From: an uncultured virus (IMG/VR IMGVR_UViG_3300027917_000045) | Taxonomy: Duplodnaviria > Heunggongvirae > Uroviricota > Caudoviricetes | Direction: 5' to 3' (one strand) | IMG/VR virus record: IMGVR_UViG_3300027917_000045 | Length of the DNA: 20,000 nt | Shown: in pieces, positions 2,034 through 11,299 of the stretch | How positions within the stretch are numbered: position 1 is the first letter of the stretch | Layout: each line of letters begins with the position of its first letter | Notes under the pieces: generated by a model | The model's database searches: none | The model's input: the letters and a program-made list of their open reading frames with translations, nothing else | Told to the model about the DNA's origin: nothing | Translations under genes and position numbers: made by a program

Positions 2034-2185
2034 TGGCTAAGGAAGACTTCTTCACGTTCGTAAGGCTGGGGCTCTCTGGGGTGCCGAGGGCCAACCTTGC
2101 TTTTGAGATAGAAGAGGAAGAGCCTGAAGAGAAGAGATGGTGGAAGAGAGTGCCTGAGATATGGAGAACGAAGACGGATGACTAG
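2033..2185 (+). CDS. Small hypothetical protein (50 aa; not in supplied track)
   Basis: ATG overlaps the upstream stop (TAATG). Translates MAKEDFFTFVRLGLSGVPRANLAFEIEEEEPEEKRWWKRVPEIWRTKTDD*. It fills the gap exactly and overlaps the terminase start by 8 nt. Confidence 0.65.
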   Translation: MAKEDFFTFVRLGLSGVPRANLAFEIEEEEPEEKRWWKRVPEIWRTKTDD

Positions 2186-3689
2186 GATAGTATCCCTTGA
2201 GGACATCGAACAAGAGATTAAGAGGCGACAATACGAGGACCCACTTAAGACGGTCTATACACCACATGCGATTCAATTATTGATACACGCTTCTCGTGCG
2301 GTATTGACTCTTGTGATTGGTGGTAACCGCAGTGGTAAGACTTTTTCTGCTGTGGCTGAAGCGTTGTACTACTGTTTAGGGCGCTCTGTGTACGCCGAGG
2401 TACCTGATCCACCCGTTACGGTTTGGTACGTCATGCCCTCGTTTGGTATGTTCGAGAAGACTATCTATCCGATCTTCAAGCAACTCGTGCCGTGGAAAGA
2501 AGTGAAGAGCTTTTCTGAGCGTGATCACTACGTCAAGTTCAATAATGGCTCTATGCTGTACTTCATCTCTGCTGACCAGAGACAGATGCGTATTCAGGGC
2601 GCTTCTGTTGACTTCATTGTGATGGACGAGTCTCCCAACGAGAGTATCTATGGAGAGCTGATCGCTCGTCTAATCGACCGTGGGGGCCGGATGTTGATGG
2701 TCCTCGCCCCGGTGGATGCGAAGTCGTTCTGGATTCGTGACAAGATCTATGTTCCTCACCTTGCAGATGAGAGTGAGGGCACAGAGGTCATCAACATGCC
2801 TACGATTGATGATGAAGGTAACCCTCTCGTGCCCACGTATACGCGAGAGGAGATTGAACGTATGGCTAGCAAGTGGACTGACCCTGCTGAGCGTAGTGCT
2901 CGGTTGTATGGTGAGTTCATTGTTCGCTCTGGTCTCGTGTTCAAGTCATTCGACAGAGACGTTCACTTCATCAAACCTTTCAAGATACCTGACAATTACG
3001 TTCGGTGGGCGTGTGTAGATCCGCAGTATCACAGGTTTGCGTGTTTGTTCTTTACAGCTGATGAGCACGGGAACTATTATATCACCGACGAGTATTTCTC
3101 TCAGGATGAAACACTCGCCGCTCGCGCAGAGCGGATGGCAGTGATTGCAGGTGAAGTAGAACAATCAATACCAGTTTATGTGGATTCTGCGAACCCACAA
3201 GACATAGCAGAGCTTAACTATCACTTCGACCGGATTGCTGCCCCGTTAGGCGCGATTAGCCTGCCCATGAAGAAGGAGATCCACAAGATGGTTCTCCGAG
3301 TTCATTCGTACTTAGAGCCAGACATCGAAAGGAAGTTTCCTAAGATCACTAATATGGGAGACATGTTAGGAGCTCCTCGCCTCTTTGTGTTCGACTCTAT
3401 AATCTCTACGTGGAGATGGAACGAGCAGAAGATGACTGTCTCTCGCTTGATTTGGGAACTGGAACGGTTATCGTGGGGGCAGAACGGTAAACCAGATAAG
3501 CAGTCTGCTGATGGCGCTGATGCTTGTGACTGTTTGATCTACGGTACCGCTATCCAAGCTTCTGGTGTTAGGCAACCGGAGAGAGAGAAGTGGAAAGATG
3601 GATTATCCTCTGGTGACATCGCTATTTGGAAGGCGATTGAGAGGCAAGATAAGAGGGGTATAGACTACTTGGATTACTTGGATTACTAG
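2178..3689 (+). CDS. terL: Terminase large subunit
   Basis: Walker A GGNRSGKT, Walker B FIVMDE preceded by RIQGASVD, 'ARLYGEF' linker, RNase H-like nuclease motifs (ACVDP; VYVDSANP; terminal DACDCLIY). Lies just upstream of the portal. Confidence 0.95.
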   Translation: MTRIVSLEDIEQEIKRRQYEDPLKTVYTPHAIQLLIHASRAVLTLVIGGNRSGKTFSAVAEALYYCLGRSVYAEVPDPPVTVWYVMPSFGMFEKTIYPIFKQLVPWKEVKSFSERDHYVKFNNGSMLYFISADQRQMRIQGASVDFIVMDESPNESIYGELIARLIDRGGRMLMVLAPVDAKSFWIRDKIYVPHLADESEGTEVINMPTIDDEGNPLVPTYTREEIERMASKWTDPAERSARLYGEFIVRSGLVFKSFDRDVHFIKPFKIPDNYVRWACVDPQYHRFACLFFTADEHGNYYITDEYFSQDETLAARAERMAVIAGEVEQSIPVYVDSANPQDIAELNYHFDRIAAPLGAISLPMKKEIHKMVLRVHSYLEPDIERKFPKITNMGDMLGAPRLFVFDSIISTWRWNEQKMTVSRLIWELERLSWGQNGKPDKQSADGADACDCLIYGTAIQASGVRQPEREKWKDGLSSGDIAIWKAIERQDKRGIDYLDYLDY

Positions 3690-3900: not shown

Positions 3901-5961
3901 ATGCCTAGACACACAACAAACACGATTCCCGATCTGGGTAACCCTGACGATTTCGCTCGTTACTCTAAGCGACAGTGGGAGAGGTTGGACGGCTTCTACG
4001 GCTTTTGGGTAGAGCGTTGGCGCAGGGTTATAGACTTCATCAGATCCCAACATTGGCGTACCCTTCAAGAGATAGACGAGAAGAATATCCCCAAATGGAA
4101 GCAGTACCCAATTATCGACATGGTACTGGCCTCCTATATTGACTATATGACGCAGTGGTTGCAGTCAGACGTTCGTTTCTCTGCTATGCCTGCGTCTCCT
4201 TCCCATGACGATATTGTGGCCTCTAATCTAGCTGAAGGTGTACTGTCGTATCTCTGGGACAGTCTCGAAATGGACATTAACCGCATCGAACTGGGGGCAT
4301 GGTTACTCGCCACCGGTAACGGTGCGTTAAGAGTGTACTGGGACACTAATACAGGGAACCTCTTACCACTAGCTAAGGAAGAGAATGGGGAGCTTATCCC
4401 AGTCTATCCAGATGGCTCCCCACTACCCCCCGGCATTGACCCGATCATGCTCGACGCTGGAGAGATCAACGTCGAACCTGTCTCTCCTCAGATGGTCCGT
4501 TGGATCACTGGTGGCCGCAAGGTCAAGGGAGTCATGGTTGGCTTCCTTCTAGATTACGATGAGGTGACTGAGAGATACGGCAGAGACAAGGCCGATACGT
4601 TGGGTTACAGTACGGACTGGGTTGGTGTCTCGTTAGATCTTATGGACATCCACGCTCCCTCTCTTGACCTAATGAAGACCGACAGAGCGTTGGTGATAGA
4701 GCACTACCTGCCAGCGTCTTATCGTCATCCAGAGGGGCTATGGTGGACGACTAGTGATACGAACGTCATTGTTCCTCCCTACCCGCTACCGGCTGGTAAG
4801 GTACCCATAGTCCCGTTCCGTTGGGCTCCACTCCCGGGCCACCCCACGATGGGTATGACCCCGCTGTACAGCATGAGTCACACTAACAAGCTGTATGATC
4901 GCGTGCTCGCTAAACAGCTAGAGTGGATGGAGAAGATCGTGCCTAAGACCCTACTAAAGTCAGGCGGTGGTGTGAAACCGGGAGACTTTAACAAGGAACC
5001 CGGGCAGGAGATTCCTGTTCACTCTGGAGCTGAGCCAGACTTTCTCTCGCCACCTGAGATGCCAGCTACCTACCGTGAGACTCGTGAAGAGATTAAGGAC
5101 GCTCACTCTTATGTCGGACTCTACCAGTTCAATAACGAGAAAGAGCCTCTGCCGGGACAAGTAGAGAAGCGTCTCAGGCTTCCTTCTCGTGTCGGTAGAC
5201 AGGGAGAGCAGACCCAACTCGCTGTAATCAATTCTCGTGCCTCATGGAAACAGATGGGTGAGGTACTGTTAGCCTACGTGGGTAGATTCTATACAGAACC
5301 TAGGGCTATTCAGATCATAGGACCTGATCGTGCATACCAGTGGAAGGAGTTCACCGGAACCGATTTGCGTAATCTTGAAGCAACGATTAAAGTTGACGAG
5401 ATTTCGCTGTACCCGTGGGCGAAGCAGGAAATCCGTGATGCTGTGATTGCTGTACTGAGTACAGATGCGGGACAGATCCTCTTCGCTGACAAGACTGGTC
5501 AGTTGGATATGGGGAAGGTATCTAAAGCTATGCAGGCCACAGGGTTAGAGGCTGCCTTTGATACTCTGGATGAGGATATTCTAGAGGCTAGGAACGAGCA
5601 TTCCCTGTTTGAGAACCTGCCGGAAGAGACAGAGACTCCCCCGATTCAGCCGTGGAACGATCACTCTACTCATGTATCTGAGCATACTAGCTTAGCGAAG
5701 AGTAGGATCTTTAAGGCGTGGCCTCAGCACGCACAGAAGGCGTTGCTTGACCACATGGGTCAGCACGAGGAACAGTTGAACAAGGCGCAAGAAGCGCAAC
5801 AGCAGGCTCAGTTGGAGATGGAACAGTCACTTAGGAGTATCAGAGCCGACACTGAGACACAGGCAGCTATCAAGGAGAAACTCGGTGAAGAGACCATTGA
5901 GATGATCATGGGTCTCATGCGTAACGCGCTTGGCTCTATTGGAGAAGAACCTAAAGACTAG
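3901..5961 (+). CDS. Portal protein (P22-like, long C-terminal helix)
   Basis: 686 aa, directly after terL. Has LATGNGALRVYWD and PIVPFRW...GMTPL...YDRVL segments typical of P22-type portals, and a Gln/Glu-rich coiled-coil C terminus (EEQLNKAQEAQQQAQLEMEQ). Confidence 0.88.
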   Translation: MPRHTTNTIPDLGNPDDFARYSKRQWERLDGFYGFWVERWRRVIDFIRSQHWRTLQEIDEKNIPKWKQYPIIDMVLASYIDYMTQWLQSDVRFSAMPASPSHDDIVASNLAEGVLSYLWDSLEMDINRIELGAWLLATGNGALRVYWDTNTGNLLPLAKEENGELIPVYPDGSPLPPGIDPIMLDAGEINVEPVSPQMVRWITGGRKVKGVMVGFLLDYDEVTERYGRDKADTLGYSTDWVGVSLDLMDIHAPSLDLMKTDRALVIEHYLPASYRHPEGLWWTTSDTNVIVPPYPLPAGKVPIVPFRWAPLPGHPTMGMTPLYSMSHTNKLYDRVLAKQLEWMEKIVPKTLLKSGGGVKPGDFNKEPGQEIPVHSGAEPDFLSPPEMPATYRETREEIKDAHSYVGLYQFNNEKEPLPGQVEKRLRLPSRVGRQGEQTQLAVINSRASWKQMGEVLLAYVGRFYTEPRAIQIIGPDRAYQWKEFTGTDLRNLEATIKVDEISLYPWAKQEIRDAVIAVLSTDAGQILFADKTGQLDMGKVSKAMQATGLEAAFDTLDEDILEARNEHSLFENLPEETETPPIQPWNDHSTHVSEHTSLAKSRIFKAWPQHAQKALLDHMGQHEEQLNKAQEAQQQAQLEMEQSLRSIRADTETQAAIKEKLGEETIEMIMGLMRNALGSIGEEPKD

Positions 5962-5973
5962 GAGTCCTAGGAG

Positions 5974-7008
5974 ATGGGAAGAAAGCCTTGGTCTGATGAA
6001 GACAAAGAGCTAGTGAAAGAGGTCTACCCTGAGTTAGGGGACATCGCACTAGCTAAAATACTAAACAGGACGCAGGGATCTATACGTGATATGGCTCGGC
6101 GTCTTGGAGTGAAAAGGAAAGGGGGCAGCGGTACTATAGGGGGAGTTACCCCAAACGTCATAGACGATATTCCCGTGGTTAGTCCCCTTTCTATTCACAT
6201 ACCAGATACGTTAGTGAAACCAATACTAGACGATATGCCTATATGCTCACTCGTCTATGGAGACGTTCACATTCCGTTTCAAGATGATGCTGCTTTGAGT
6301 ATCATGTATCAGGTGTGTGAGATTGTGGACTTTACAGAGGTAATGAACATAGGAGATCTGACCGACAACTGGCAGATCTCTTCTTACATCCCTCCCGACG
6401 AACGACAGTTAGACCGTACACAACAAAGCTTGCAAGAGCAATTTACAATGGCTGCTCAACACGTCGGGAAGATGGAATACTTGAACCCTAACGCTGACCT
6501 GTATTTCCTTGAGGGTAACCACGAGGAGAGGTGGTCACGTATGTTTCGCAAGGCGCAAGAGGATTACAAGTGGCGTCACATACTCTCTCTACCTCATGTA
6601 CAAGAAGCTCTCTCTGTCCGTTACATGATAGGGTTCAGTGAGCGTTGGAAGTACCGTGAGTACAACGATGAGTTGGTTCACCATGACAGGATAGTGTTCA
6701 CCCACGGTGACCGTACAACTATCTGGGTGACTCGTGGTATGTTGGAGAGGTACGGTAAGAGTTCTATGTTTGGACACACTCACCGTATCCAGAACTTTAC
6801 TAAGACTGATTTAGTAGGCACCATAGCAGCGTGGAATATTGGCTGTATGTGTGACCTGCATCCCCACTACAAGTACTCTAACGCCACGAACTGGGCTCAG
6901 GGTTTCGCAGTGGTCTATTGGTCTGACGATAGGAAATGGTTCCATGTTGAGCAGATCAGGATACATGACGGTAAGGCTATGACTCCGTGGGGGTTGTTGA
7001 CAGCTTAG
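5974..7008 (+). CDS. Calcineurin-like metallophosphoesterase with N-terminal HTH/Myb-like domain
   Basis: All five metal-binding motifs are present in order: GDVH, GDLTD, GNHE, THGD, GHTH. The N terminus KPWSDEDKELVKEVYPELGDIALAKILNRTQGSIRDMARRLGV fits a helix-turn-helix. AGGAG RBS. Confidence 0.9.
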   Translation: MGRKPWSDEDKELVKEVYPELGDIALAKILNRTQGSIRDMARRLGVKRKGGSGTIGGVTPNVIDDIPVVSPLSIHIPDTLVKPILDDMPICSLVYGDVHIPFQDDAALSIMYQVCEIVDFTEVMNIGDLTDNWQISSYIPPDERQLDRTQQSLQEQFTMAAQHVGKMEYLNPNADLYFLEGNHEERWSRMFRKAQEDYKWRHILSLPHVQEALSVRYMIGFSERWKYREYNDELVHHDRIVFTHGDRTTIWVTRGMLERYGKSSMFGHTHRIQNFTKTDLVGTIAAWNIGCMCDLHPHYKYSNATNWAQGFAVVYWSDDRKWFHVEQIRIHDGKAMTPWGLLTA

Positions 7009-7011
7009 CGG

Positions 7012-7041
7012 TTGGTAGGAAGATTACAAGGACACTAGTGT
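7012..7041 (+). promoter_or_regulatory. Possible sigma70-like promoter/operator in 65-nt spacer
   Basis: TTGGTA (7012-7017), 18-nt spacer, TAGTGT (7036-7041). The -10 candidate lies within the perfect 10-bp palindrome ACACTAGTGT (7032-7041). Weak consensus match. Confidence 0.25.
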
Positions 7042-7073
7042 AGTAATACTTAAACAGAACAAGGAGCATACGT

Positions 7074-7295
7074 ATGCCAAAAGGTTTCAGAAGCCCTAGC
7101 CCCAACACTGGCGGGATGAGAGTCCCCAGCAAGAATGCTGGTGCTAAGCCCAAGGCCAAAGGTTCGGCCTCTGCTGGTGACAAGGACCGTATGGGCAAAT
7201 CTCAGGCTATTCCTACAGGTCAGACGCAGGTAAATAAGTTCCCGCCTAGCACCGGGAAGCACTCAAGGGCTGGCGAGAAGACTGGTAAGCCGTAA
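7074..7295 (+). CDS. Small basic low-complexity protein (73 aa)
   Basis: AAGGAG RBS. Lys/Gly/Pro/Ser-rich, likely disordered. TAATG-coupled to the next ORF. Confidence 0.7.
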   Translation: MPKGFRSPSPNTGGMRVPSKNAGAKPKAKGSASAGDKDRMGKSQAIPTGQTQVNKFPPSTGKHSRAGEKTGKP

Positions 7296-7438
7296 TGCCC
7301 GTCCAGAAGTCCGGTAGTGGTTATCGTTACGGCACCAAGGGTAAGACCTACCGTGGCAAAGGAGCAAAGGCGAAAGCGAAGAGGCAGGGCAGGGCTATCA
7401 AAGCCAGTCAGGCCAGACAAGGTAAATCTAAGAAATAA
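7295..7438 (+). CDS. Very small highly basic protein (47 aa; not in supplied track)
   Basis: TAATG overlap. MPVQKSGSGYRYGTKGKTYRGKGAKAKAKRQGRAIKASQARQGKSKK*, with no acidic residues. Stop falls just before the scaffold RBS. Confidence 0.75.
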   Translation: MPVQKSGSGYRYGTKGKTYRGKGAKAKAKRQGRAIKASQARQGKSKK

Positions 7439-7450
7439 CAGGAGATAGAG

Positions 7451-8560
7451 ATGGCTGGAGAGGATCTTACCCCTGATATTGGGGTATCGGCAACAGAAAT
7501 GGATTCGGCTACTCGTGCTGGCGAGCGGCGACACACCAAAGCCACGGCCCGTAGCCTAGCTGGTATCGTAGCCACAAAGATGGAAGAGGCGGCAGCTGCG
7601 GAGGCTGAAGAGGCCCCTGCTGTAGAAGATGTAAGCCAAGTTACACCAAAGGGTACTAAAGAGGGTGTCGAGTACGTCACCGTCGAGGTTGACCCTGAAA
7701 CTGGTGAGGAAACTGTAGTTAAGGCTACAGAAGCCCCCGCTGAGGAGGAGGGAGTACAGTATATTGAGGAGGAAGTGCCTCTAGCGGAGATCTCCCAAGC
7801 TCTCAGTGATGCAGGAATCGTTCTTGATATTGACCCTAATGAGCTGCCTGATGAGGCTCTGGGTGTCTATGAGAGCCTTACCTCTGCTATTCTACAAGCC
7901 GCTGGCAAGTCTCTTGAACGTGAGAGGGAAGCCAATGACCGGATGTTGGAGCTGAATGACTTCTCTGAGAGGCTACAGAACTCACCTGATAAGATCATGT
8001 TGGCTCTAGCTATGGAGAAGCCAGAGGTCTTTGCTAAAGTGGCTGGTGTGGTTGAGAGAATGGCTGATGACCCTGCTCTCAAAGAGAGTGTGATTAGAGA
8101 GCTAGAGAGTGAAGTCAGGCTTCAAGAAGCGAACCGTATCAAGAGAGTAGCGGACGTTGAGACACGTACACTTCAGGGCCGCAGAGTCGCTCAGGAGACT
8201 CTTAGACAGGCCAAGAGGTACGGTGTCAGTCCAGAGGTAGCTAATGAGTACATCTCCTCACAAGTACGCGCTAACAGCAACTGGCTAGAGGTCAACCAAG
8301 TTGAGCCTCTGATCCAGAAGCTTTCTGGTGGCCAGAAGAAGAAGATCGTTATTCGTAAGGTACGTCCCAAGAAAGTTACCCCAGAGCAGGCAAAGGCTGT
8401 AGCTGAAGCCAATACTGCCCCTGTGGGTGGAGCGCCTGCCCCGGGCGCTACTAGAGAAGCCTCACCGGGACTGCACCAAGACAATGTCCCGAAGAACCGT
8501 GGTGGTATCTTCAGGGGTCTAGTCAAGCAGGCCGCTCGGAGAACTAGGACCACCGAGTAG
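7451..8560 (+). CDS. Capsid scaffolding protein (putative)
   Basis: Lies between portal and capsid genes. Very acidic, disordered N-terminal third, helical/coiled-coil middle, Pro/Ala linker and basic C terminus. No protease motif seen. AGGAG RBS. Confidence 0.75.
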   Translation: MAGEDLTPDIGVSATEMDSATRAGERRHTKATARSLAGIVATKMEEAAAAEAEEAPAVEDVSQVTPKGTKEGVEYVTVEVDPETGEETVVKATEAPAEEEGVQYIEEEVPLAEISQALSDAGIVLDIDPNELPDEALGVYESLTSAILQAAGKSLEREREANDRMLELNDFSERLQNSPDKIMLALAMEKPEVFAKVAGVVERMADDPALKESVIRELESEVRLQEANRIKRVADVETRTLQGRRVAQETLRQAKRYGVSPEVANEYISSQVRANSNWLEVNQVEPLIQKLSGGQKKKIVIRKVRPKKVTPEQAKAVAEANTAPVGGAPAPGATREASPGLHQDNVPKNRGGIFRGLVKQAARRTRTTE

Positions 8561-8578
8561 CCTCCTTCGTAGTACCCC

Positions 8579-8614
8579 GGCCCCTTGACTTGTAAGTTGA
8601 GGGGCCTTCTCTTT
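8579..8614 (+). terminator. Terminator-like hairpin after scaffold gene
   Basis: GGCCCCTTGACT-TGTA-AGTTGAGGGGCC (12-bp stem with 2 G-U pairs) followed by TTCTCTTT. It could instead be one helix of a larger leader RNA. Confidence 0.5.
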
Positions 8615-8715
8615 AGCCTAGATCTATCTTAGAGTAGGTCTTGGAGAGTTCTTGAGGAAAGCATTTCGTTCGTAGCAGTTTGTTACTAAAACAAGCAATA
8701 CAGGAGTTTATCTAA

Positions 8716-9984
8716 ATGGCAGCCACACAGGCTGATCTGTCTCGTCTAGACGCGATCTTGAAAGACCGTGATCTGATTGACGGTGTACAGGAAGCTATTA
8801 ACAAGGCGACTCCCTTTGCCGAGAGCATCACTCAAGAACTAACGATGTCTGGGCGTAAGGGAATCTTCCCCGTTTCCTTCGGGGTAAACGAGGGTATCTT
8901 TGCCCGTGCGGACAAGGGTTCCTTCGGTGATTCACAGGTTGACCAGCCCGATCTGGCAGAGGTCTACACGAAGTTTGTGTATGCCCTGTTTGAGATCTCT
9001 GGCCCGACCATGAGCGCGACTAGGGATTCTGAGGGTGCGTTCGAGGACGCGCTGGCTCTCCAGCTAGAGCAGACCATTGACGGCGTGAAGCTGGATATGG
9101 CTCGGATGATCCTGAATGCGAACCACACCGCAGCTGGTGATGGTGTCATCGCGCTGGTGCAGTCCAAGACTGACACCGATACCATCATAATCGACAGTCC
9201 GTTTGGGCTGACGACTTATATGGGCAACGTCGATGTTAAGAACGTGATTCGTAAGACTCAGGCTCTTGACGTTATCGACACGACTTCCCCTCCGACTACT
9301 AAGCACCACAATAATAACACTGTTGCTGGTGTTTCCCATTCTGGTACAGGTACCACGATTGATTTTGATGCTGTTGAGGCTACGGCCCCGGCTGATGGCG
9401 ACTACGTGACCCGTGCTGGTAACTGGGGTAATGAGCCTGATGGGTTCTTCTCTGCTGTAGCCACAGCGGCTCAGTCTGCAAACTACCTGAACATCCCGCG
9501 TGCTGGTAACGATGGGTGGGAAGGCCAGCTTGTTGACGCCACCGATGGTGGGAGCACTGCTGTTCCTCTTGATCCTGATATGCTTCGGGATTCGGTTGAC
9601 CAGATCATGGAAATCTCTGGCCACGCGCCTGAGTTTATCGTGTGTAACTACAAGCAGCGTCGAAATATCTACAATCTGTATGCACCTCAGATTCGATATG
9701 CCCCGATGGTTCTGCCCAGTGGTCTTCGTGAAGATACACTGAGGTTTGACGACATGCCCGTGATGGTTGAGCGGTTCTTCCCGCCTCAGCATATCGGCTT
9801 CGTCAATACGGCTTACTGGTACCACGCCATCGACAAGGATGTTGAATGGATTCAGGGCCTCAACGGCACTGTCCTTCACTTCGATGGTGATGCGGACCTG
9901 TTTAAGGCCGTTCTTCGCACGTACCGGAACCTCGTGTGCTTCTATCCGGCTACGCAGGGTTATCTGTACGGCGTCGAAGAGTAG
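8716..9984 (+). CDS. Major capsid protein (HK97 fold inferred)
   Basis: 422 aa, after the scaffold, with AGGAG RBS. Segments typical of HK97-fold capsid proteins (N-terminal LDAILKD, YALFEISGPTMSAT...GAFEDAL, C-terminal PVMVERFFP...YRNLVCFYPATQGYL). Central Thr-rich insertion. Confidence 0.9.
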   Translation: MAATQADLSRLDAILKDRDLIDGVQEAINKATPFAESITQELTMSGRKGIFPVSFGVNEGIFARADKGSFGDSQVDQPDLAEVYTKFVYALFEISGPTMSATRDSEGAFEDALALQLEQTIDGVKLDMARMILNANHTAAGDGVIALVQSKTDTDTIIIDSPFGLTTYMGNVDVKNVIRKTQALDVIDTTSPPTTKHHNNNTVAGVSHSGTGTTIDFDAVEATAPADGDYVTRAGNWGNEPDGFFSAVATAAQSANYLNIPRAGNDGWEGQLVDATDGGSTAVPLDPDMLRDSVDQIMEISGHAPEFIVCNYKQRRNIYNLYAPQIRYAPMVLPSGLREDTLRFDDMPVMVERFFPPQHIGFVNTAYWYHAIDKDVEWIQGLNGTVLHFDGDADLFKAVLRTYRNLVCFYPATQGYLYGVEE

Positions 9985-11198: not shown

Positions 11199-11299
11199 TG
11201 AAGCCTTGGATAGCGTACTGTCTCGGTGTACTGACAGGTATAATCATTGTCTGTATAGTACTGTTCATTGAGTTTCTCAACGCAAGATGGCCGAGCTAA
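11198..11299 (+). CDS. 33-aa single-TM peptide (not in supplied track)
   Basis: TAATG overlaps at both ends (11198 and 11299). MKPWIAYCLGVLTGIIIVCIVLFIEFLNARWPS*. Confidence 0.7.
   Translation: MKPWIAYCLGVLTGIIIVCIVLFIEFLNARWPS

Follow-up and report, generated by a model that had tools for sequence, protein, structure and literature searches.

The locus considered here raises the question of what is encoded in the 155 nt (positions 8561-8715) that separate a scaffold-like gene from the major capsid protein gene of an uncultured tailed phage. The DNA analysed, hereafter the window, was a 20,000-nt stretch holding the structural module of this phage; all features are numbered by their window positions and lie on the + strand unless stated otherwise. 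In a previous sequence-only reading the spacer had been described as a translational switch, in which an anti-Shine-Dalgarno (anti-SD) segment located directly after the scaffold stop codon pairs with the Shine-Dalgarno (SD) sequence of the capsid gene until a ribosome terminating on that stop codon frees it. Based on folding predictions and on comparison with related loci, it was concluded that the spacer is probably made of ordinary parts, namely a terminator-promoter junction followed by a capsid leader. A ribosome-coupled switch between scaffold and capsid translation was not supported.

Hairpin and promoter-like elements of the spacer

A GC-rich hairpin with the form of an intrinsic terminator occupied positions 8579-8606. 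It consisted of 12 bp, 7 of which were G-C pairs, and a 4-nt loop. Its predicted energy was -21.3 kcal/mol (z-score -4.31), none of 200 shuffled sequences was equally stable, and it ranked best of the 13 terminator-like sites in the window. The hairpin was followed by the T-rich tail TTCTCTTT (8607-8614), which held 6 T in 8 positions where the scan rule required at least 5. Both the stem expected of an intrinsic terminator (at least 5 pairs and a loop of 3-8 nt) and the U-rich tract were present.

Two overlapping -35-like hexamers, TTGACT (8585-8590) and TTGTAA (8590-8595), were found within the hairpin, the former matching TTGACA at five of six positions. When the scan was relaxed, TTGTAA-N18-TAGCCT was the only promoter-like arrangement in the spacer, with 4/6 and 3/6 matches for the two boxes. 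TAGCCT (8614-8619), the sole -10 candidate of the TAnnnT form, was weak and lay downstream of both -35-like hexamers, at 18 nt from TTGTAA and 23 nt from TTGACT. A perfect 8-bp palindrome, TAGATCTA (8619-8626), was situated where the -10 element or the transcription start would lie. For word counts, the window was joined with a near-identical 60-kb virus record (G001), whose spacer was 100% identical, and the resulting 62.5 kb were used as the genome; the palindrome occurred there in two copies only, the other being at window position 1447.

Conservation of the spacer elements among relatives

A protein search returned 120 relatives of the capsid protein, and loci were collected by scanning viral and metagenome contigs, in which the encoded capsid proteins were 56-67% identical. 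After the removal of duplicates, 23 unique spacers between a scaffold homologue that could be recognised and the capsid gene were available, as well as 31 unique capsid upstream regions, the window counted in. A scan of genome contigs gave no relative, and a second viral scan with an alignment of close relatives gave duplicates only (L075 and L076). All 23 unique spacers were at least 144 nt long. As judged by eye, those longer than 300 nt held an additional small open reading frame (ORF), and a distant capsid group (~25% identity) had short spacers.

Two hexamers were the most enriched in the 200 nt preceding the capsid gene: TTGACA, ranked first, occurred in 19 of the 31 regions (1.1 expected), and CCGGAA likewise in 19 (1.7 expected). 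A strict sigma-70-type promoter, defined by a -35 box with at least 5/6 matches, a spacer of 16-19 nt and TAnnnT, was present in 17/31 upstream regions where ~1.2 were expected, the window being outside the 17. Elsewhere in these loci 24 matches were counted over 136,982 nt, which corresponds to a background of 0.04 per 230 nt. Further, a hairpin of -9 kcal/mol or lower overlapped a -35-like box, or preceded it by 15 nt or less, in 26 of 29 sequences. In L060 and L016 a textbook GC stem with TTTT was followed directly by TTGACA, and L050 combined a hairpin nearly the same as that of the window with TTGACT-N18-TAGCTT.

In an alignment of eight hairpin sequences anchored on the -35 box, CTTGAC was invariant and the stems, in our reading, differed in sequence and register. 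A fixed CTTGAC with shifting stems is expected when a sequence-constrained -35 box lies over a structure-constrained terminator. With a promoter at the hairpin site, most capsid mRNAs of the relatives would start downstream of the hairpin. RNAalifold predicted no pairs in MAFFT alignments of either the leaders or the hairpins; the MAFFT leader alignment placed the SD segments in different columns, and the 15-sequence alignment of whole leaders was too poor for use. Additionally, a [CT]GGAA word was located 45-100 nt before the ATG in 29/31 regions, the two exceptions being the window and a locus whose upstream sequence was limited to 51 nt.

In one clade (L007, L013 and L045) the spacer held an extra small ORF, whose product begins with MGNW. 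In the same clade a conserved word, CTGGTAGC...CCCCGCG, was observed just 5' of the terminator-promoter hairpin.

Accessibility of the capsid start region

The opening energy of a start region was calculated over positions -16 to +3 of the start codon, and translation was modelled by keeping the coding region unfolded. The capsid start region was the most open among the 19 window genes, with 3.1 kcal/mol as compared with a median of 6.8 kcal/mol for the 18 others, all of which had an opening energy equal to or above that of the capsid gene. The start region was also open in leader-only RNAs (3.0-3.9 kcal/mol). The highest value of any context, 5.38 kcal/mol, was obtained when the coding region was kept unfolded, and it dropped by ~1.9 to 3.47 kcal/mol once a ribosome footprint over 8546-8572 was added; in nearly all other contexts the value was about 3 kcal/mol.

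The closed state, at 5.4 kcal/mol, lay below the window median of 6.8 kcal/mol, so that even the presumed off state would be among the most open start regions. The earlier proposal that the ribosome-binding site is hidden unless the upstream pairing is relieved was not supported, as the site was predicted to be accessible either way.

The leader box and the masked SD of relatives

The leaders of many relatives were also predicted to hide the capsid SD, about a third of the relatives having a co-varying helix that masks it from inside the leader. The box region was hybridized in silico with its own SD/start region at -12.6 kcal/mol and with swapped partners at -9.65 kcal/mol, and 0 of 20,000 permutations gave a value as low. 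The test was conservative, since swaps within clades were included. A duplex covering at least three SD bases with p <= 0.05 against shuffled sequences was found in 9 of 30 sequences, the window included, and three further sequences gave p values of 0.06-0.105.

By eye, one clade was seen to place an anti-SD between two GGAA words and to change it in step with the SD, ACTCCTTG occurring with CAAGGAGT, ATCCTTGG with CCAAGGAT, and ACCTCGG with CCGAGGT. In a second clade the anti-SD lay 5' of the box, and in a third the SD was part of a local hairpin. Leaders of a third type (L003, L037, L038 and L041) carried a conserved AAAAACTGGCC word followed by a short local hairpin with the SD; the hairpin stems after CCGGAA co-varied by eye (TGAGG/CCTCA, AGAGG/CCTCT and CGAGG/CCTCG).

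The helix of clade A was examined in three sequences, where 95% of cells were paired and 2 of 7 pairs were compensatory; slid controls reached at most 62%. A covariance model built from these three sequences (R1) also detected L043 (E 5.8e-6) and, weakly, L036, L047, L050 and L069. A nine-row alignment, which was fitted to the model structure and contains one probably spurious row (L073), was 90% paired with 3 of 7 pairs compensatory, its covariation score being 0.21 as compared with 0.10, and none of 500 shuffles scored as high. In a complete genome of 67,410 nt with terminal repeats, R1 had a single match. The capsid start regions of relatives were more occluded than those of neighbouring genes, with medians of 10.1 and 7.6 kcal/mol, respectively (one-sided Mann-Whitney p 0.009).

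The window carried the leader box TCTTGGAGAGTTCTTGAGGAAAG at 8639-8661 as the positional counterpart of the CCGGAA-N-GGAA box of relatives. At the site of that motif it read CTTGGAGAGTTCTTGAGGAAAG (8640-8661), with GGAG and AGGAA at a matching distance. Two weak, G-U-rich anti-SD candidates at 8639-8643 and 8647-8654 were able to pair with 8701-8708, and the SD partners 8639-8642 and 8650-8653 were paired with a probability of 0.3-0.4 in leader-only RNAs. The duplex of the window box with the SD had an energy of -14.2 kcal/mol, and 0 of 200 shuffles were as good. The whole leader was no more stable than shuffled sequences (z-score +0.43), and its minimum free energy (MFE) structure had a frequency of 0.01.

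No Rfam family matched positions 8300-9000 at E <= 10 by cmscan. The whole genome gave only tRNA at the gathering score, and the 13 loci of relatives examined at E <= 1 gave one irrelevant sub-threshold match. Full-text searches of the literature yielded no account of a capsid leader with a CCGGAA box, which does not prove its absence from print. The general idea that the capsid leader is a cis-regulatory region outside the described families was borne out, given the blank Rfam result and the many relatives that mask the capsid SD through an upstream anti-SD.

Organization proposed for the spacer

We proposed that the hairpin and its T-rich tail (8579-8614) may serve as a Rho-independent terminator or as a 3'-end stabiliser for the portal-to-scaffold transcript. 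The -35 box TTGACT/TTGTAA within the hairpin would be the remnant of a promoter for the host RNA polymerase, which is near consensus in relatives. Since the -10 element of the window is poor, the promoter would be weak, or read-through would contribute. The ~90-nt 5' leader that follows would contain a diverged copy of a box that this phage group has ahead of its capsid gene and nowhere else, and would end in a strong, exposed AGGAG. Such exposure suits the heavy translation that this gene, above all others, requires. The hairpin, the enriched motifs, the missing conservation of the post-stop anti-SD and the predicted accessibility are results of the analysis, from which termination, the use of the promoter and the start of the capsid transcript were inferred. 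A hairpin and a -35-like box that are kept, together with the missing strict -10 element, the lack of an R1 match and the z-score of +0.43, suggest that the window holds a diverged, open version of the capsid cassette of the group.

Several points weigh against this organization. The T-tract TTCTCTTT is broken by two C, no TAnnnT was found 16-19 nt after TTGACT, so that the window fails the strict promoter scan, and efficient termination at the hairpin, if it occurs, would leave the transcription of the capsid gene unexplained. R1 gave no match in the window at E <= 10, and with the filters switched off it returned only 5-bit fragments on 8400-8900; the homology of the leader box is accordingly based on its position and a short similarity recognised by eye. 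None of the 7 runs listed with this DNA is on record as RNA. Finally, the comparison at the DNA level covers loci with capsid proteins of 56-67% identity, the nearest relatives by protein (P0002-P0008) being 69-77% identical.

A leader that has diverged and still works was considered as an alternative. An anti-SD by the GGAG/AGGAA box (8639-8654) would then mask the SD, and a phage or host factor acting on the GGAA-type box would set the timing of capsid translation. The box-SD co-variation of relatives (0/20,000 permutations), the compensatory pairs of the clade-A helix in both alignments, the single R1 match in a complete 67,410-nt genome and the occluded capsid starts of relatives all argue for masking in the group, and the window itself is among the nine sequences with a significant duplex. 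However, the nine-row alignment was fitted to structure and has its doubtful row, R1 misses the window, the window leader does not fold better than shuffled sequences, and no other gene of the window has a more open start region than the capsid gene. Further, no CsrA-like, Com-like, sigma or RNA polymerase gene was found by Pfam among the 51 ORFs scanned, which are part of the ORFs of the genome. This alternative appeared unlikely.

A broader proposal was that these phages (~60-70 kb) share an undescribed single-copy leader RNA, consisting of a factor-bound CCGGAA-N-GGAA box and a co-varying anti-SD:SD helix, by which the factor would time capsid translation after constitutive transcription by the host polymerase. 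In the window the proximal helix would have decayed, and the anti-SD at the scaffold stop codon would have taken over, tying capsid translation to scaffold translation on read-through mRNA. We regard this combined scheme as quite unlikely.

For the window itself the terminator-promoter junction changes little, as such a junction with an open leader is expected before the most highly expressed structural gene. More may be gained from the capsid leader of relatives, which is conserved, capsid-specific and absent from Rfam and has a co-varying helix concealing the ribosome-binding site. If this helix is regulatory, capsid synthesis in these phages, which have no cultured member, would be timed at the level of translation, on mRNAs transcribed by the host polymerase.

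The anti-SD segment after the scaffold stop codon

The sequence elements on which the switch had been based were all in place when read directly: the scaffold TAG at 8558-8560, the proposed anti-SD CCTCCTT at 8561-8567, which reads AAGGAGG on the minus strand, and, 9 nt ahead of the capsid ATG (8716), the SD AGGAG at 8702-8706. GTA (8569-8571) was likewise able to pair with TAC (8699-8701). The spacer measured 155 nt, the other + strand gaps of the structural module being 65 nt (7009-7073) and 88 nt (11199-11286) by ORF reading; a crude greedy choice of ORFs lists longer gaps too, but + strand ORFs occupy them. The possibility that ribosomes read through the scaffold TAG into the capsid gene was rejected, because a second in-frame TAG follows three codons on and the two frames differ.

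The multibranch fold was obtained from 8561-8730 alone, with the CUCCU:AGGAG helix in both the MFE and the centroid structure. When 8530-8740 was folded, the helix was retained in the MFE structure and was mostly gone from the centroid. Of its proposed components, three hairpins and a closing helix, the first hairpin (8579-8606) exceeded chance and the rest did not. The region 8606-8650 gave a z-score of -1.05, with 22 of 200 shuffles equally stable. The small hairpin GTTTGTT/AACAAGC (8678-8696), which lies upstream of the SD and leaves it uncovered, had an energy of -5.5 kcal/mol and a z-score of -1.40, and 18 of 200 shuffles were equally stable. The best duplex between the upstream spacer and the last 22 nt before the ATG reached p 0.43 against 300 shuffles. 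The pairing was also dependent on context: the SD was paired with 8561-8572 at a probability of 0.89-0.95 when the RNA began at 8545 or 8561, and with 8562-8566 at 0.00 when it began at 8400 or 8500, that is, when 60-160 nt of folded coding RNA were added.

The anti-SD was not kept in relatives. In the 23 unique spacers, the pairing energy of the 20 nt after the stop codon averaged -7.96 kcal/mol with the native SD region and -7.74 kcal/mol with swapped partners (p 0.35), and the same comparison for 30 nt gave p 0.30. No CTCCT was present in the 78 nt examined upstream of the hairpin of L050, the one almost the same as in the window. At the frequency of CTCCT in the 62.5-kb genome (54 copies on the + strand), a stretch of 135 nt would contain the word with a probability of 0.11. 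The CCTCCTT segment is probably specific to this lineage and without a conserved role, as the comparison of spacers suggests.

An arrangement known from T4 genes e and soc could give the segment a role. If an anti-SD precedes an internal promoter, the SD would be masked in long read-through transcripts, and transcripts started at the promoter, lacking the 5' arm, would be translated freely. The geometry fits, with the anti-SD at 8561-8567, the -35-like box at 8585-8595 and the SD at 8702-8706, leader-only RNAs are open at the start region, and regulation of this kind is on record for e, soc, 49 and I-TevI of T4 (PMC3014915, section 29). However, the post-stop anti-SD is not conserved, and the relatives with clear promoters have their co-varying anti-SD inside the leader, downstream of the predicted transcription start. 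The window promoter is a candidate only, with a -35-like box and a weak -10 element, and the masking is both weak (5.4 kcal/mol) and dependent on context (0.9 as opposed to 0.00). This arrangement was considered rather improbable here.

The switch of the sequence-only reading, in which CCUCCU (8561-8566) masks the SD on read-through mRNA and a ribosome at the scaffold stop codon frees it, agrees with the helix seen in the 8561-8730 fold, with the high pairing probability of the shorter RNAs and with the decrease of the opening energy once 8546-8572 is covered; masking of the SD also recurs among relatives. Against it stand the small size of the effect (~1.9 kcal/mol), a closed state that is more open than the median gene, the loss of pairing with added upstream coding RNA, the terminator-form hairpin between the two arms, and a perfect 5-mer complement that is attained by chance at 0.11. 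The post-stop segments, moreover, do not co-vary with the SD, and L050 has no CTCCT in the part examined. The release of the ribosome-binding site by a terminating ribosome lacks support, since the anti-SD is not conserved and the site is predicted to be accessible with or without the pairing; both outcomes had been named beforehand as speaking against the model. We consider it very unlikely.

Lastly, CCTCCTT could act as the SD (AAGGAGG) of a 120-amino-acid ORF on the minus strand, from GTG 8553 to 8191, and this was judged most improbable: the SD is perfect, its 7-nt distance to the GTG is good and the frame is open, but the product has no PHROG or Pfam match and the composition of an antisense read, the conserved frame is the sense, scaffold-like one, and all 23 unique relatives have antisense open frames here, which differ in frame and length and lack a conserved SD, as expected of a compositional by-product.

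Genomic context

The spacer lies in a module in which the large terminase ORF (2178-3689), the portal ORF (3901-5961) and a metallophosphoesterase-like gene (5974-7008) precede the scaffold-like gene. Two small, very basic ORFs of 73 and 47 amino acids (7074-7295 and 7296-7436) are placed between the phosphoesterase-like and scaffold-like genes. Neither had a PHROG match, and the first has a good SD. The scaffold-like gene (7451-8560) encodes an acidic, coiled-coil-like protein of 369 amino acids, for which no match was found in PHROG or Pfam. By tblastn, homologues of its product were located directly upstream of the capsid gene in relatives, and the scaffold label is a putative one taken from this position. 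The capsid gene (8716-9984) encodes 422 amino acids and matched PHROG 14242, major head protein, with an E value of 2.4e-21; PF17236 is listed for the database cluster of the protein.

The joined 62.5-kb genome has a G+C content of 50.5% and contains 147 copies of AGGAG on the + strand as compared with 54 on the - strand. The source runs with this DNA were marine-sediment metagenomes. Contigs from 4 runs gave identical fragments only, and no sequence variants were found over 8100-9200. Searches by blastn and tblastn against cultured phages returned nothing beyond one 20% match, that is, no cultured relative. No tRNA or tmRNA was found in the window, and one tRNA is present in G001 (L073:12176-12248).

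A second promoter-like site, CTGACA-N17-TATAGT (11231-11259), was noticed inside the 88-nt gap before the ORF at 11287. Outside the window, G001 encodes a Ro60-type protein (L073:1995-3650) with a TROVE domain (E 8.8e-49) and a Ro60 vWA domain (E 4.2e-37); no Y-RNA family was detected anywhere in the genome at the Rfam gathering score. A 2572-amino-acid ORF of G001 (L072:35-7750) had no Pfam match.

Comparison with known systems

Translational coupling through long-range mRNA pairing is known from MS2 coat-replicase and from E. coli rpmI-rplT, where an elongating ribosome melts a helix formed with the upstream coding sequence. The synthesis of the P22 scaffold is autoregulated. The switch proposed for the window resembles the coupled systems in that translation of the upstream cistron would alter the downstream ribosome-binding site via a long-range helix. 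It differs in relying on the footprint of a terminating ribosome on a non-coding anti-SD across a terminator hairpin, and in being without conservation.

CsrA/RsmA bind leaders with GGA motifs, and Com of Mu activates mom translation. The leaders described here are similar in having two to three GGA(A) motifs in the 5' leader beside an SD-pairing segment, and a protein on such a leader could close or open the start region. The conserved word, however, is CCGGAA/YGGAA and not the CsrA consensus, and the window has GGAG and AGGAA. Pfam detected no such protein among the 51 phage ORFs scanned. The comparison may serve as a lead only.

In a structure screen of IMG/VR, candidate cis-regulatory structures were consistently found upstream of structural genes, five of them before one major capsid family, and many terminators were reported as well (PMC10690425). 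That family, PHA00201, is not demonstrably the one to which the present capsid protein belongs, and the CCGGAA-box leader of this group may or may not be among the 10,006 candidates of the screen.

In T4, inhibitory RNA structures are described at the start regions of e, soc, 49 and I-TevI, and the masking helix of gene e is credited with an effect of about 100-fold (PMC3014915, section 29). The window is similar in that a segment preceding an internal promoter-like element is able to pair with the SD, so that masking would be confined to long transcripts. The T4 helices are local and strong and T4 uses phage late promoters, whereas the window helix closes a 130-nt multiloop and adds ~2 kcal/mol, and its arrangement is not conserved.

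A Rho-independent terminator abutting a sigma-70 promoter at an operon junction is the system with which the preferred reading of the spacer was compared. The window is similar to it in having, directly after a stop codon, a 12-bp GC-rich stem with a 4-nt loop and a T-rich tail, and in the TTGAC of a -35 box at that site. It differs in that the putative -35 box lies in the 5' arm of the hairpin and the candidate -10 element is degenerate. The relatives carry a full terminator together with TTGACA-N16-19-TAnnnT.

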